Assembly (NCBI GenBank): GCA_046293555.1
Contig: JBKBOT010000006.1
Span: forward strand, 1-64,000
Origin: Pyrobaculum sp.
GTDB lineage: Archaea > Thermoproteota > Thermoprotei > Thermoproteales > Thermoproteaceae
Reading direction: 5' to 3'
Length of the DNA: 64,000 nt
Position numbers and translations under genes: made by a program. Under the pieces are notes generated by a model that was not told where the DNA came from, searched no databases, and worked only from the letters and a program-made list of their open reading frames with translations. Of this stretch, positions 8,866-18,735 are shown in pieces (position 1 is the first letter of the stretch; the number at the start of each line of letters is the position of its first letter).

Positions 8866-9903
8866 TTATAGCCATCTCGCGTCCAGCGGAGCCCCAATTG
8901 TGGACCCCCAGGCGCCAATTGCCGCAACGCCTTTTTTAAACAACCCCGTCGGGTGTCCGCCCGCCTGCTACGCCTATCATAAGCCCGACCCCCCTCACGC
9001 CCCCACCCAACTTCCCCTGGAGTTTAATCTCCCACTGCATGGTAGAGCTGCCCCTCTTCCTCAAGACGCCAGGGCGGCCGCCACGGCTGACGGATTTCCG
9101 CCAAAAGTATTGACGTGGGAGCCTCTGGGTAGAGACATGACTTCCGCCCTGCCGATCATGGCGCCGAGTGGGAGGCCCGCGGCGATGGCCTTCGCCGTGG
9201 CCACCAGCGCCGAAACGGCGAGCCACCTCCCCGACTTGCCAAATTCGGTTTACTGCAGGCAAGATGCCGGATTTCTCTTAACCTTCTTCAACACTGTATG
9301 AAGTTTTTGGCGGCACCACATAGCCCCAGGGTGGGCTCTATCAACACCAGGGCCACCTCCTCGGGGTCACAAGCCTGGCGAAAATCCAGTCTTAAAGAGG
9401 GGGCGCCACCTTCCCCCGGCGTGGAGGTCTTGAGGGGGCAGCGGGGAGTGGTGGGCGTGAATTACGGCGGGGATTCTGTATGGTTTTAAAGGCGGCAAGG
9501 CTCATTGGGCCACGTCCGTGGAAAGCCACCACGTGGGGCCTTTGAAGTACCCTCTGGCGGCTTTTAGCACCTCCTCTATAGACTCGGCGCCGCTGTTTGT
9601 ATACCTTTTTCTTTCCGGAAATAGGCGTGATGGCGGTCAGCATTTCTGCCTTACCGCCGCTAAAAATCTGTGGTGGAGAAACTCTGCCTGTCTTGGCCTC
9701 TTGGGGTGGGCATGTCTTACGGCGATGCCCACGTTGGGGTTTCTGTCGACGTCTTCAAGGCCTCCTGGCGATCGCCAGGGGGTACCACCTGGCGAATAAC
9801 TGCATGATGGGCTGCCGGTCCCTTCTAGAGCCTTCGGGCGCGGCGGCTTCACCACGATTTGGGGCACCTTGTCGGGATCTATGGGCCGGTGCCATTTGGG
9901 CAT
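8866..9903 (-). pseudogene. eroded class III (4-aminobutyrate/acetylornithine-type) aminotransferase pseudogene
   Basis: Motifs in the correct order but in different frames: MPKW..VPQIVVKPP, EDVD, TNSGAESIEEVLK, AFHGR, IEP, AKAIAAGLPLGAM, H.NTFGGNP, VRGVGLMIGV, FKKGV. Confidence 0.9.
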
Positions 9904-14644: not shown

Positions 14645-16030
14645 TTATTTATTTACCGGAAGCTCTTTTAACACAAGGCTAGTCAAGGTGGAGGCAACCC
14701 CCTTGACCTCCCTAATGTGTTCAATAACGTTGTTAAGATCTTCGGTGTTTTCAGCCACGACCTTCACCACGATGTCGTAATCGCCTGTAACCTCAGACAC
14801 TGCGGCCACGTTTTTCAACGCCGCCAGGCGTCGCGCCACGGAGGTGGTGTAGACGTTATTAGCCACCTTAATCCAGACGTAGGCCTCTATGTGCCTATTT
14901 ACTCTCGCCCTGTAGGCCGTCTTGGTGATTTTCTCTAGTATTTCCAACAGGTCGTCATCGCGGAGCCGCCTCACGTTGAGACTTTTCACCTCTTCTACCA
15001 ACCTGTCTACCACGTCCAGGGGGACCGTGATGCCCATACGTTCTAGCCTATACTGTATGGCTTTCCTCCCGCTGTATTTATCTAGAGAGAAGTCCCGTTC
15101 TCTCCCCACAACTTCTGGAGGTATGGGCTCGTAGGTCTCCGGGCTGGCTATAACTCCAGCCTGATGTACGCCAGCCTTATGTGTAAATACGTTTTCCCCA
15201 ACAATGGGGAAGTTAGGCATTGTGGGGATCCCGCTGGCAGTCTCCACAAGGGCTGTGACCCCCGGGAGTTTTTTCAAGTCTACCAACTGGACGCCGCGGT
15301 GGTAGTAATATGCCGCCGCGAAGACCTGTAGCGGCGTGATGCCCGCCCTCTCCCCAAGGCCGTTGACAGTAGTGTGGACGACATCTGCTCCCCCCTCCAC
15401 AGCCGCCAGACTGTTAGCTACAGCCATGCCGAAGTCGTTATGGGCATGTATGTCTAACCCCACTGTGGGCACAGCCCTTTTGGCCATAGAGAAGACCTCT
15501 CTCGCCCTATCTGGCGTAAAGACCCCCACCGTGTCTGCAATACTGACCCTATCTGCGCCAGCCTCGTGGGCTGTCTTCACCACCTGGATCAAGTAGTTTA
15601 AGTCAGCCCTAGAGGCGTCTTCTGCGGTGAATCTCACAGCCACGCCGTGAGATCTAGCGAGCGAGACCATTTCCGCAACTATCTGGAGGGCCTCCTCCCT
15701 GCTTTTCCTGTGTTTATGTCTCAAATGGATATCGCTAATGCCGTAAAAAACCGCCACTCTATCTGGCTCCAGAGAGGCTGCGTTCTCCAGATCTCTCCTT
15801 ACGGCTCTGGAGTGGACTACTATCTCGCCTTTAATCTCCCCGTTTTTCTTCATGGCTACTATCTTCTTAACTGCCTGTCTTATGTCAGGAGCCACGTTGG
15901 GATCTCCCACTTCAATCATCCCAACTCCTATATCCGACAGCGCCTTTGTGATTCTAACCCGCCACTCTTCGGAAAATATGACGCCGGGGGTCTGCTCCCC
16001 CTCTCTTAAGGTGGAGTCTAGAATCGCCAC
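14645..16030 (-). CDS. homocitrate synthase with C-terminal Lrp/AsnC (RAM) ligand-binding domain; true start may be ATG 16050 via a -1 frameshift
   Basis: LDSTLREGEQ, RFTAED, HAHND, GLGERAG, HKAGVH; C-terminal EVTGDYDIVVKV...IR.VKGV..T.T. Confidence 0.88.
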   Translation of the reverse strand: MAILDSTLREGEQTPGVIFSEEWRVRITKALSDIGVGMIEVGDPNVAPDIRQAVKKIVAMKKNGEIKGEIVVHSRAVRRDLENAASLEPDRVAVFYGISDIHLRHKHRKSREEALQIVAEMVSLARSHGVAVRFTAEDASRADLNYLIQVVKTAHEAGADRVSIADTVGVFTPDRAREVFSMAKRAVPTVGLDIHAHNDFGMAVANSLAAVEGGADVVHTTVNGLGERAGITPLQVFAAAYYYHRGVQLVDLKKLPGVTALVETASGIPTMPNFPIVGENVFTHKAGVHQAGVIASPETYEPIPPEVVGRERDFSLDKYSGRKAIQYRLERMGITVPLDVVDRLVEEVKSLNVRRLRDDDLLEILEKITKTAYRARVNRHIEAYVWIKVANNVYTTSVARRLAALKNVAAVSEVTGDYDIVVKVVAENTEDLNNVIEHIREVKGVASTLTSLVLKELPVNK

Positions 16031-16050
16031 TCTTTCCCCTCTCGAGCCAT
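16018..16050 (-). other. leader mini-ORF MAREGKEWRF* with G-GGG-AAA(Lys) candidate -1 slip site
   Basis: ATG 18 nt after TTTTATAT (16076-16069); a -1 slip on GGGG (16039-36) joins the homocitrate synthase frame. Confidence 0.6.
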
Positions 16051-16079
16051 GTCGCCAAGATGAGACAGATATAAAAGCC

Positions 16080-17063
16080 TTACGCCACCAGAGAGGCCAC
16101 GTGTTTACCCACCTCTCTCGTGGCGTTAGAGCCGCCGATGTCAGGCGTCTTCACTCCCGCCTCTAGGGTCTTCTCCACAGCCCACCTTATGGCGCCAGCG
16201 GCCTCCTTTTCGCCAAGCCATTCAAACATCATGGCGGCAGACAGAATGGCGGCAATGGGGTTTGCAACACCTCTACCAGCTATGTCAAACGCGGCGCCGT
16301 GTACCGGCTCAAACATGGCCTTTCTGTCGCCAATATTGCCGCTAGGGGCCAAGCCGAGTCCCCCCGCCACCTGTGCCGCCAGATCTGTCAAAATATCGCC
16401 ATATTGGTTTGGAGTTAACACCACGTCGAAGCGGGTGGGGTTCCTCACGAGCTCCATAGCCGCGGCGTCTACATACATCTGGTCTACCTCTAGTCCTTTC
16501 AGCTCTTCTAGCGCCACGTCTCTAAAAAGCCCATCTGCCACTCTCAACACGTTCGCCTTGTGGACTATGGTGACTCTCTTTTTCCGCATTTCTGCATACC
16601 TCCTGGCCACCCTGGCCACCCGTCTGGTCCCCTCCTCGGTGATGACCTTAAGCGCTATGGCCACGCCGCCGGCTTTATACTCTGCGCCTATGTATACATC
16701 CTCCACGTTTTCTCTCACAAAGATGCAGTCAATAGGCCTTATCGCCGGGACGCCGGGGAGGTTTTTTACAGGCCTGATGTTGGCATATAGCAGATATCTC
16801 GCCCTAATTAAAGAGGTGACGTCAAAAGCGGACTCCCCCACAGGCCCCTTGAATATAACGTCTGCGGCATCTGCCAGCTTTAAGGTCTCAGGCGGCATGG
16901 CCACCCCGTATCTTCTAAACGCCTCGTCGCCAGCCTCCGCCATCTTTATCTCAAACTCCACGCCGTATTTGGCGGCAGCGGTGTTTACTACATACATCGC
17001 CGCCTCTACTACCTCAGGCCCGATGCCGTCTCCCGGAATTACGAGAAGCCTATATGGCGCCAT
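16080..17063 (-). CDS. leuB: 3-isopropylmalate/homoisocitrate dehydrogenase
   Basis: [42 protein letters not shown]. Confidence 0.92.
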
Positions 17064-18182
17064 AAGACCTCACGACCTCTTTTAGTACCACCTCATCTAC
17101 CCTAATCTTTCTCGCTGCATATTCTTTAACTTTCTCCAAGACGTATGTAACCAGCTCTTCGTCTGGCTCAATCCCAAGGTTTTTCAAAGCCCACTCTACT
17201 GAGTGTTTGCCGGAGTGTTTACCCAACACAATCCTCCTCCTGTTGCCCACATCTTCTGGCCTCATGGGCTCGTAGGTAAATGGGTTATTTAACACCCCAT
17301 GTACATGTATCCCCGCCTCGTGGCTAAAGGCGTTCTCCCCCACCACCGCCTTGTTGGGAGGCAGAGAGATGCCAAACAGTTTTGACACTAGTTGAGACAA
17401 CTCGTAGAGCTTATGTAGCCTTATGTTTGTCCTGTATCCCAACAGGAAGTGTAACGCGGCCACCACTTCTTCCAACGCCGCGTTTCCAGCCCGCTCGCCG
17501 AAATTATTTACCACCACCTGCGCTACCTCCGCCCCAGCCTCTATTGCCGTCACCGTGTTGGCTACAGCCATGCCGAAATCGTCGTGGCAGTGGACATGTA
17601 TAGATACTGGCGGCAGCCTGTCTTTTAGGTAAGTTATTAGGTAGGACATCCTGCCGGGAGTCATCACCCCCACTGTGTCTGGGACGTTTATCTCGTCTGC
17701 CCCCGCCTCTATGGCGGCTCTATAGGCCTCCACTAGAAACTCCAAGTCGCTCCTAGTGGCATCCTCGGCGCTAAACAATACCCTCACCCCGTGAGACTTG
17801 GCGTAAGTCACCACCTCCTCTATCTTCTTGATTACCTCACTGCGGGTCATCTTTAGTTTGTACTTCATATGTATGTCAGAAGTGGCGATAAACAGGTGGG
17901 CTATGTCTATATCTGCGGAGAGGGCGGCATCTACGTCAGATTTGTTCATCCTGGCCAGACTTGCCACTTCCGCGTTTTTCACCTCTCTGGCGATAGCCCT
18001 AATTGCCAACACCTCCTCTCTAGAAACTGCGGCAAATCCGGCTTCTATCATGTCTACCCCAGCGTCGTCTAGGGCAATTGCAATCTGTAGTTTTTCTTGG
18101 GGTGTTAGAGCCACGCCGGGGGTCTGCTCTCCATCTCTCAGAGAGGTGTCAAAGATCTTTATGACACGAGCCCCGAAGCCAT
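17050..18182 (-). CDS. leuA: 2-isopropylmalate synthase (short form, no C-terminal regulatory domain); predicted to need a -1 frameshift after ATG 18182
   Basis: [42 protein letters not shown]; the only in-frame ATG (18201) overlaps the TATA box. Confidence 0.85.
18159..18182 (-). other. leader mini-ORF MASGLVS* with G-GGG-CTC(Leu) candidate -1 slip site
   Basis: ATG 18 nt after GAAAAG-TTTTTATATA (18216-18201); a -1 slip on GGGG (18174-71) joins the leuA frame. Confidence 0.65.
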
Positions 18183-18200
18183 ATAGAGGGAAAATCGACA

Positions 18201-18238
18201 TATATAAAAACTTTTCAGCTCTCTAAAAGATATATATA
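18201..18238. promoter_or_regulatory. divergent BRE/TATA promoters of leuA (-) and leuD (+)
   Basis: minus strand GAAAAGTTTTTATATA; plus strand AAAAGATATATATA 17 nt before the leuD ATG. Confidence 0.7.
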
Positions 18239-18255
18239 GGCGTTTTTTACAGCCT

Positions 18256-18735
18256 ATGCGCATAAGGGGGAGGGCTTTGGTATATGGAGACAAGATAGAC
18301 ACAGATGTCATCATCCCGGCGAAATACCTCGTATATACAGACCCCAAGATACTTGGCCAACACGCCATGGAGCCAATAGACCCCCACTTCCCCCAGAAGG
18401 CAAATGGGGCGATACTGGTGGCAGGCCGCGCCTTCGGCATGGGCTCCTCTAGAGAGCAGGCAGCCATAGCGCTAAAGGGGGCTGGGGTTTTGGCGGTAGT
18501 GGCTGAGAGCTTCGCAAGGATCTTTTTTAGAAACGCCATAAATGTGGGGCTGCCGGCGCTACAAGTGCCAGGCGTGAGGTCTAAAGTGAGGGAGGGGGAT
18601 ATGCTAGAAGTAGACATAGAGGGGGGCCACGTGGTGAATTTAAACACAGGCGAGGTGATAAAAGGCAAGCCCCTCACCGGCCTGCCCTTAGAGATCCTAA
18701 AGGCGGGTGGGCTGATTAGCTTTCTGAAGAAGTAG
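18256..18735 (+). CDS. leuD: 3-isopropylmalate/homoaconitate dehydratase small subunit
   Basis: GDKIDTDVIIP, FGMGSSREQA, SFARIFFRNAINVG. Confidence 0.95.
   Translation: MRIRGRALVYGDKIDTDVIIPAKYLVYTDPKILGQHAMEPIDPHFPQKANGAILVAGRAFGMGSSREQAAIALKGAGVLAVVAESFARIFFRNAINVGLPALQVPGVRSKVREGDMLEVDIEGGHVVNLNTGEVIKGKPLTGLPLEILKAGGLISFLKK

Follow-up and report, generated by a model that had tools for sequence, protein, structure and literature searches.

Our analysis of a 64,000-nucleotide (nt) stretch of DNA from Pyrobaculum sp. (assembly GCA_046293555.1, contig JBKBOT010000006.1, positions 1 to 64,000 of the forward strand; referred to below as the window) points to a starvation-sensing ("hungry-codon") -1 frameshift that probably serves as a leucine sensor for isopropylmalate synthase (IPMS), the product of leuA. 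That a -1 shift at the tetranucleotide G_GGG is the route to IPMS appears very likely, and it is likely, if less firmly so, that this shift reports the supply of leucine. On the evidence of the sequences, a -1 slip of peptidyl-tRNA-Gly beside a waiting A site is the sole model that fits all of the features described here.

In the mechanism that we propose, the leuA-leuB mRNA would be leaderless, with its 5' end at ATG 18182, as suggested by promoter geometry. The ribosome would read M-A-S-G, bringing peptidyl-tRNA-Gly onto GGG in the P site and the Leu codon CTC into the A site. With Leu-tRNA arriving promptly, L-V-S would be read and translation would stop at TAA 18161-18159, yielding no enzyme. 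With charged tRNA-Leu scarce, the A site would stay empty and tRNA-Gly would slip back one base on G_GGG; the A site would then show GCT, and the ribosome would continue into IPMS and, through coupling, probably also into LeuB. The proposal further assumes that slipping is favoured by a position near the 5' end of a leaderless mRNA or by a very hungry A site. The direction of such a response would be sensible because it is scarcity that sends ribosomes into the enzyme frame, plenty releasing only the leader peptide. The relevant features of the leuA 5' region are:

18231..18238, plus strand: TATATATA box, placed for the divergent leuD-like gene, its first T 25 nt upstream of ATG 18256
18211..18216, minus strand: purine-rich GAAAAG just upstream of the TATA box, resembling a transcription factor B recognition element (BRE), conserved in the alignment of 29 orthologs
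18201..18208, minus strand: TATA box TTTATATA of the leuA-leuB promoter, its first T 26 nt before ATG 18182
18199..18201, minus strand: canonical start ATG in the enzyme frame, inside the TATA box, not conserved
18180..18182, minus strand: predicted leaderless start ATG, one base out of the enzyme frame, in 29/29 orthologs
18159..18182, minus strand: leader open reading frame (ORF) ATG GCT TCG GGG CTC GTG TCA TAA (M A S G L V S stop)
18171..18174, minus strand: putative slip site G_GGG, invariant in 29/29
18168..18170, minus strand: predicted sensor codon CTC (Leu), which would occupy the A site with GGG in the P site; invariant in 29/29
17050..18174, minus strand: IPMS (short LeuA) frame that would be entered by the -1 shift; TIGR02090, HMGL-like + HCS_D2
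18146..18167, minus strand: inverted repeat GTGTCA (18167-18162) ... TGACAC (18151-18146), not part of the mechanism

Leader, putative slip site and promoter of leuA

The leader comprises seven sense codons, with CTC as codon 5, and its ATG sits nineteen bases downstream of ATG 18201. The leuA orthologs were compared across 29 genomes of the family Thermoproteaceae, covering three genera. Throughout this set the string CGGGGCTC is invariant, the base before the out-of-frame ATG is a pyrimidine, and the leader is closed by a stop codon upstream of the Asp codon of the catalytic DTSLRDGEQ motif (GAC at 18150-18148, minus strand), at a distance of 11 nt in 20 loci and of 14 nt in the other 9. The 14-nt stop occurs in the very loci (9/29) that lack the 11-nt one, and the leader ends 2-3 codons past CTC. 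A tRNA-Gly placed on GGG 18173-18171 could fully re-pair one base upstream, on GGG 18174-18172.

Among 66 invariant fourfold-degenerate columns (24 orthologs), the third base is invariant in just one, that of the Ala codon GCT overlapping CTC; the T of this enzyme-frame GCT also serves as second base of the leader CTC, and GCT accounts for 15.9% of the Ala codons in the genome. The codon that follows GCT is Arg CGN in 27/29 loci (CAC in 2), AGR making up 73% of Arg codons. Conservation of the enzyme frame resumes at G-A-R, with Arg held through the synonymous codons CGT, CGC and CGG. In three loci of a sister family there is one unbroken frame, ACG GGG GTT AGG, with five G, which corresponds residue for residue to the predicted shift product. 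The original prediction, made on this DNA alone, held that expression proceeds through a -1 shift at a slip site before the Leu codon, giving ...ASGARVIK, with leucine control of translation; it is backed by the ortholog conservation, by the unbroken frame of the sister family and, above all, by the recurrence of cognate codons at other amino-acid genes (described below).

Promoter geometry was assessed by counting TTTAWATA-like 8-mers upstream of the ATG of 847 long ORFs of the genome. The counts peak 27 nt upstream of ATG, with a range of 25-29, a TATA spacing that is the signature of leaderless transcripts. The leuA leader, at 26 nt, has this usual spacing of a leaderless archaeal transcript, and in 29/29 orthologs the TATA 8-mer begins 25-28 nt upstream of the out-of-frame ATG. 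The role of GAAAAG as BRE is our assumption from general knowledge of archaeal promoters. Both A/T boxes, TTTATATA and TATATATA, lie in the 54-bp leuA/leuD spacer. Because they stand 26 nt from ATG 18182 and 25 nt from ATG 18256, as against 37 nt from TATATATA, read on the minus strand, to ATG 18201 (where the genome-wide count is 2 vs 62 at the peak), each box, judged by its placement, serves one of the two divergent genes, and that of leuA points to the out-of-frame ATG. We infer the assignment of TATATATA to leuD from its 25-nt spacing, which falls within the genome-wide peak.

ATG 18201-18199 is the single in-frame ATG, GTG or TTG between the upstream stop and DTSLRDGEQ, and TTTATATA (18208-18201) ends on its A. 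These two points, namely that the sole in-frame ATG overlaps the TATA box and that no other such start precedes the motif, had been noticed earlier, and our sequence check agrees with both. A canonical in-frame start is absent from the upstream stop to codon -18 in 18/29 orthologs; in the remaining 11/29 such starts occur at scattered positions. The orthologs share no conserved peptide in the stretch before the out-of-frame ATG.

The inverted repeat was also part of the original prediction, which had already doubted its role; it is indeed present in the window, but is not conserved (54.0% of cells paired vs 52.8% in shuffles) and appears as a window-specific coincidence. The fold energy of the 83-nt 5' end is unremarkable (z = -0.65), and a search of positions 15900-18400 returned no Rfam match at E up to 1. 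A search for RNA sequencing runs matching 17050-18300 listed none. The site departs from the canonical -1 form X_XXY_YYZ in that the A-site codon after a -1 shift is GCT, which is not readable by tRNA-Leu, and the downstream sequence holds no conserved hairpin or pseudoknot of the kind that acts as 3' stimulator in canonical -1 programmed ribosomal frameshifting (PRF). The terminator/antiterminator arrangement of attenuation is likewise lacking, the leader overlapping the enzyme frame and no structure being conserved.

The IPMS frame, counted from ATG 18201 (minus strand, 17050-18201), encodes a 383-amino acid (aa) protein of the isopropylmalate/citramalate/homocitrate synthase family. It scores 506.9 bits against the archaeal subfamily model TIGR02090 (cutoff 484.75) and 502 bits against NF041069, the Sulfolobales-type IPMS equivalog (cutoff 600). 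Pfam analysis gave the domains HMGL-like and HCS_D2, and no allosteric LeuA_dimer domain (PF08502), the hallmark of a feedback-regulated LeuA; the earlier remark that the protein lacks the C-terminal leucine-binding regulatory domain thus holds. Of its paralogues, CimA, encoded in the same genome (TIGR00977, 592 bits vs cutoff 450), carries LeuA_dimer PF08502, and homocitrate synthase (HCS), encoded within the window (518.6 bits vs cutoff 413.55), carries a C-terminal Lrp/AsnC ligand-binding domain. By elimination of these two the 383-aa protein is assigned as IPMS, the sole one of the three synthases without a regulatory domain, and the proposed device would stand in for the missing allosteric domain.

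Recurrence at amino-acid genes

The whole genome was scanned for ATG codons with a TATA box (at most 1 mismatch) starting 24-30 nt upstream; the leader could not exceed 25 codons and had to have X_XXX among its first 10, and the ORF in the shifted frame had to span 100 codons or more. G_GGG with a -1 shift yielded 14 loci, the seven remaining pairings of base and direction 0-4 each. Function could be assigned at 12 of the 14, each of them an amino-acid gene in which G_GGG is followed by a codon for an amino acid of its own pathway:

TrpB-like: TGG (Trp)
TrpD: TGG (Trp)
TrpRS: TGG (Trp)
IPMS: CTC (Leu)
Acetolactate synthase: GTA (Val) at one site, CTC (Leu) at the second
CarA: CGA (Arg)
LysX: AAA (Lys)
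HCS: AAA (Lys)
Prephenate dehydratase: TTT (Phe)
CysK-like pyridoxal phosphate (PLP) enzyme: TGT (Cys)
Transketolase N-terminal subunit: TAT (Tyr) and TTT (Phe)
ThrC: ACA (Thr)

The joint chance probability of these codon-pathway matches is 10^-16.8, a figure that loses some of its weight, to the cost of our interpretation, in that the cognate amino-acid sets were assigned after the genes had been seen and are broad for acetolactate synthase and transketolase. The slip GGG is found at codon 2-7 at all loci, and at codon 10 at the second transketolase site; the run counts four G, five at the first acetolactate synthase site.

The arrangement is also retained across the family. That of carA is present in 29/29 loci and always uses CGA, which represents 2.3% of Arg codons. 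For acetolactate synthase, the Leu site occurs in 28/28 loci and the Val site in 27/28 (G_GGA_GTA in the other one). The counts are 26/28 for lysX, 26/28 for thrC, 24/25 for trpS and, in genus g1, 16/16 for trpD. Loci without the device have an ordinary in-frame ATG or GTG and are mostly placed inside an operon, with the exception of thrC in genus g2. A second device lies within the window, at the HCS gene:

16018..16050, minus strand: HCS leader ATG GCT CGA GAG GGG AAA GAG TGG CGA TTC TAG
16036-16039, minus strand: putative HCS slip site, followed by the predicted Lys sensor AAA at 16033-16035
14645..16039, minus strand: HCS frame that would be entered by the -1 shift, with GTG 16030 in frame

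The HCS TATA box TTTATATC (16075-16068) begins 25 nt upstream of the leader ATG, and the pattern NNG GGG AAA was found in 28/28 orthologs examined. GTG 16030, the start chosen by ORF finders, is not conserved in relatives.

In its general form the device would be a leaderless mini-ORF, ATG-(0-5 codons)-G_GGG-[sensor codon]; its specificity would lie in the sensor codon, and the enzyme frame could be entered only by tRNA-Gly slipping back one base beside a vacant A site. Tandem sites would provide multivalent control: by Val and Leu at acetolactate synthase, by Tyr and Phe at transketolase, and by Ile and Thr at ThrC of genus g1 (12/17). We regard it as reasonably likely that one such modular device underlies a control set of Thermoproteaceae embracing the synthesis of Leu, Val, Lys, Arg, Thr, Trp, Phe, Tyr and Cys, together with TrpRS. 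The one observation that supports the assumed effect of 5' proximity comes from 291 ordinary leaderless genes, whose codons 2-10 are depleted of G_GGG (15 vs 36.2 expected, p = 1e-4); A_AAA, C_CCC and T_TTT are not depleted in these positions.

Relaxed scans of this genome added one likely member, AroD-chorismate mutase (ATG GGG TAT TGA), and found no sensor for His, Met, Pro or Ser genes. Their other matches were mostly internal false hits (in TldD, PurC, Cmr2, aIF2-gamma, AHCY, RpiA, PurA and a DapE-like gene), the rest being ORFs without any family. A strict pattern search of the complete genome of a relative (G008) retrieved leuA, trpD, carA and the CysK-like gene (ATG CTG GGG TGT), and nothing new.

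Several side observations concern individual loci. In 12 of 17 g1 genomes the thrC leader (L117-L133) has an extra upstream site, G GGG ATT (Ile), besides TCG GGG ACR (Thr); the two lead into the same frame, and threonine synthase of this genus would answer to Ile as well as Thr. An unassigned scan locus divergent from thrC (L047, G000:C29:2059-2789, minus strand; no Pfam or NCBIfam match) has three G_GGG sites in its leader, followed by CCA (Pro), AAA (Lys) and CGA (Arg). Its predicted fold resembles LysX ATP-grasp enzymes (TM 0.84, a lead only), and it may be a LysW-pathway ligase. At G000:C26, near 8911-8934 (plus strand), a 381-codon ORF lies in the -1 frame behind a TATA-positioned mini-ORF, ATG GAA AAA TAT TTA TAT TAG, in which Tyr codons come after A_AAA; this could be a variant slipping on A_AAA. 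The leader of a GatE-like gene (L085, G000:C15:1746-3622, plus strand) reads ATG TGG ACT ATG GGG CCT ..., with the enzyme in the -1 frame; the position of its TATA box (23 or 32 nt upstream) is less favourable, and an in-frame TTG offers an alternative start.

In the sister family, carA (L285-L311) opens with ATG [A/C]TT CGG and the enzyme in the +1 frame in 10/10 loci of genus g6, and with ATG ATG GGA CGA GCA TGA, the stop overlapping an in-frame ATG, in 5/5 loci of genus g4. These mini-leaders with Arg codons may be related sensing devices of other design, and such sister-family variants suggest that the principle is wider in Thermoproteales.

Alternative routes to the enzyme

The unbroken frame with five G in part of the sister family looks as if one G had been lost from leuA, and no stimulator or regulator was seen at this gene. 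Both facts would suit a constitutive -1 frameshift that corrects an old one-base deletion at a fixed low rate, with no response to amino acids. Such a shift would leave unexplained the invariance of the 0-frame codon after G_GGG, the 12/12 match between codon and pathway at the assigned loci and the rare CGA kept by carA in 29/29 loci, and we consider it unlikely. Recoding could also be dispensed with altogether if IPMS started at the non-canonical ATA 18162, possibly after termination on the leader. Named public proteins do begin there (MKIFDTT..., MRIFDTT...), the leader stop overlaps this codon in 29/29 orthologs (as ATAA, GTAA, GTGA, TAATC, TAATT or TAGTC), and the corresponding codon of the paralogous HCS is GTG. 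This option had been raised in the original prediction, and ATA 18162-18160 is indeed in frame; it is not, however, conserved as a start codon. The codon varies among orthologs (ATA, ATC, ATT, GTA, GTG, GTC), including GTA in 7/29 and GTC in 1/29, which do not serve as starts, and such a codon is missing in the vicinity of the slip sites of LysX, ThrC, CarA and PheA. Furthermore, synonymous substitutions (CGT, CGC, CGG) leave the Arg residue 18 nt upstream of the Asp codon unchanged, and most annotated N-termini of the wider family that extend far enough have a basic residue at this position, from which we conclude that the stretch upstream of ATA is translated in the enzyme frame. An ATA start is thus very unlikely.

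A longer transcript, for example from TATATATA at 18238-18231 read on the minus strand, would allow the enzyme to be made from ATG 18201 as MSIFPLY...; this codon exists, its frame is open, and TATA boxes are, as generally held, nearly symmetric. Transcription from that upstream box had been named beforehand as the case that would speak against a frameshift. The box stands 37 nt upstream of ATG 18201, where some 27 nt is usual and only those 2 genomic counts were recorded vs 62 at the peak, and 25 nt from the start of leuD; neither the codon itself, which falls within the conserved TATA box, nor the peptide preceding the out-of-frame ATG is conserved, and 18/29 orthologs have no canonical in-frame start. 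Taken together, these findings make a start at ATG 18201 highly improbable. Least probable of all is transcriptional slippage, in which RNA polymerase would add a fifth G and so put the enzyme in frame with ATG 18182. Its protein product would be identical, the predicted transcripts have the run among their first 3-21 bases, and bacteria are known to show reiterative transcription close to start sites. Four G are, however, short of the long homopolymer that such slippage takes, with a threshold usually put at ~7-9, and the cognate codons would have no role. The base after the run is A, C, G or T depending on the locus, and because of this difference no single nucleotide pool would be sensed.

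A leucine-responsive slip at G_GGG, the interpretation we prefer, has several observations to contend with. A consensus fold of the 29 orthologs, inspected for conserved local structure, contained only 5 long-range pairs and no covariation. CTC is an ordinary codon (18.5% of Leu codons), and the in-frame ATG 18201 present in this genome would be usable by an upstream transcript. Two of the 14 scan loci have no family assignment, and at the GatE-like locus G_GGG is followed by a non-cognate Pro codon. At Trp and Cys sensors, the -1 frame necessarily has GTG right after the slip site, that is, an alternative GTG start. In-frame G_GGG is common inside ordinary genes (3640/253,184 codon pairs, observed/expected 1.68), with none of the avoidance that general slipperiness would lead one to expect, and the tetranucleotide alone therefore cannot be very slippery. 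An aragorn search of the draft genome listed no tRNA-Gly gene, an uninformative result given that such genes may hold introns or be unassembled. Finally, TrpRS is encoded by an essential gene that carries the device, so that basal shifting would have to be substantial.

Neighbouring genes, public records and known systems

The genes flanking leuA in the window are:

16080..17063, minus strand: leuB-like dehydrogenase (TIGR02088, 397.8 bits, slightly under the cutoff of 409.8)
18256-18735, plus strand: leuD-like gene, divergent from IPMS

The leuB-like gene is probably on the same transcript as IPMS, because its start overlaps the 3' end of the IPMS gene. The leuD-like gene contains an in-frame AGG GGG AGG, with G_GGG at codon 5 and the same frame continuing beyond it; it is one of just 15 ordinary leaderless genes with G_GGG in codons 2-10.

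Two further observations concern IPMS genes of other genomes. The leuA ortholog match in one draft genome (L014, genome G011) has one in-frame TGA. In genera g4 and g6 of the sister family (L025-L030, L036-L038), the IPMS frame opens GTG GNN TAG ATT GCT CAR in 8/9 loci, with the in-frame TAG as third codon (TGG in L036); public records start at ATT (MAQE...), and the TAG may reflect read-through, an ATT start or re-initiation.

The original prediction had recommended looking for odd annotations among orthologs, and public records indeed treat the gene in at least four incompatible ways. Many begin MPGV..., just past the catalytic GEQ, with the motif cut off; some begin at ATA, ATT or ATC (the Ile/Val codon four before Asp, read as Met); and some use chance upstream starts. 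One curated entry begins MASGLVQIKIFD, joining the leader frame to the enzyme frame, and the name of one record includes "with possible unusual start codon". Across the family, each genome probably has some dozen gene families with this annotation error. A literature search with subscription journals outside its scope yielded no account of frameshifting, leader peptides or unusual starts for amino-acid genes of Pyrobaculum or Thermoproteus.

Little is known of how archaea sense single amino acids when regulating their synthesis, and we know of no archaeal counterpart of bacterial attenuation or T-boxes. In attenuation (trp, leu, thr, pheA, ilvBN), the speed of the ribosome on cognate codons of a short 5' ORF reports charged tRNA. 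The leuA leader shares with it a very short 5' ORF containing a codon of the regulated amino acid, and the acetolactate synthase leader has Val and Leu codons, as has the E. coli ilvBN leader. Unlike attenuation, the arrangement described here has one sensor codon rather than a run and no terminator/antiterminator hairpins; the leader belongs to a presumably leaderless archaeal mRNA and overlaps an enzyme gene without its own start codon, and the output would be a change of reading frame, not transcription read-through. In T-box riboswitches of Firmicutes, uncharged tRNA is bound by a long structured leader that acts on transcription. As with T-boxes, the putative control set joins biosynthetic operons with a cognate aminoacyl-tRNA synthetase, TrpRS having a Trp sensor; unlike them, it has no leader RNA. 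In prfB (RF2) and antizyme, a slow A-site event set by a controlled factor or metabolite triggers a shift that gives the full-length protein. These two are single genes that use a +1 shift, sense at a stop codon (RF2 level or polyamines) and have extra stimulators, whereas the shift proposed here is -1 and would serve a multi-gene set with interchangeable sensor codons.

Like leuA in our model, fucA1 is an archaeal gene in which a -1 frameshift is required for the full-length enzyme. Its site consists of a slippery heptamer and a downstream structure, and we know of no amino-acid sensing reported for it. According to a 2021 review (PMC8211752), fucA1 of Saccharolobus solfataricus is the only -1 PRF reported in Archaea and, unlike leuA, its site joins two long ORFs, of 81 and 426 aa. 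Antizyme is treated in a 2016 review of frameshifting, of which the 300,000 characters searched make no mention of Pyrobaculum, leuA or isopropylmalate (PMC5009743). Frameshifting inside an amino-acid leader peptide, as for leuA, was described for pheL of E. coli in a paper whose title calls it apparently incidental (PMC3082878); unlike that predicted for leuA, the pheL shift is not into the enzyme frame, as far as the accessible part of that source goes.

The closest relative of the proposed event is the single-tRNA -1 shift at hungry codons of E. coli (Gallant and Lindsley), in which, as outlined in the two reviews, the P-site tRNA slips back one base next to a starved A site (PMC8211752, PMC5009743) and no stimulatory structure is needed (PMC8211752). 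The leuA site would work likewise: the P-site codon can re-pair fully one base upstream, and no structure would be needed. Hungry-codon shifting is known as a starvation error in test constructs, whereas here it would be conserved and the only route to the enzymes; the 2016 review states that no examples are known of its making starvation-specific trans-frame proteins (PMC5009743). The leuA finding appears to widen into a new class of amino-acid sensor. If true, this would be a minimal programmable sensor of about 12-20 bases, with its specificity written in a single codon and with neither RNA structure nor protein factor, the first natural regulatory use of hungry-codon frameshifting and an archaeal counterpart of attenuation and T-boxes.

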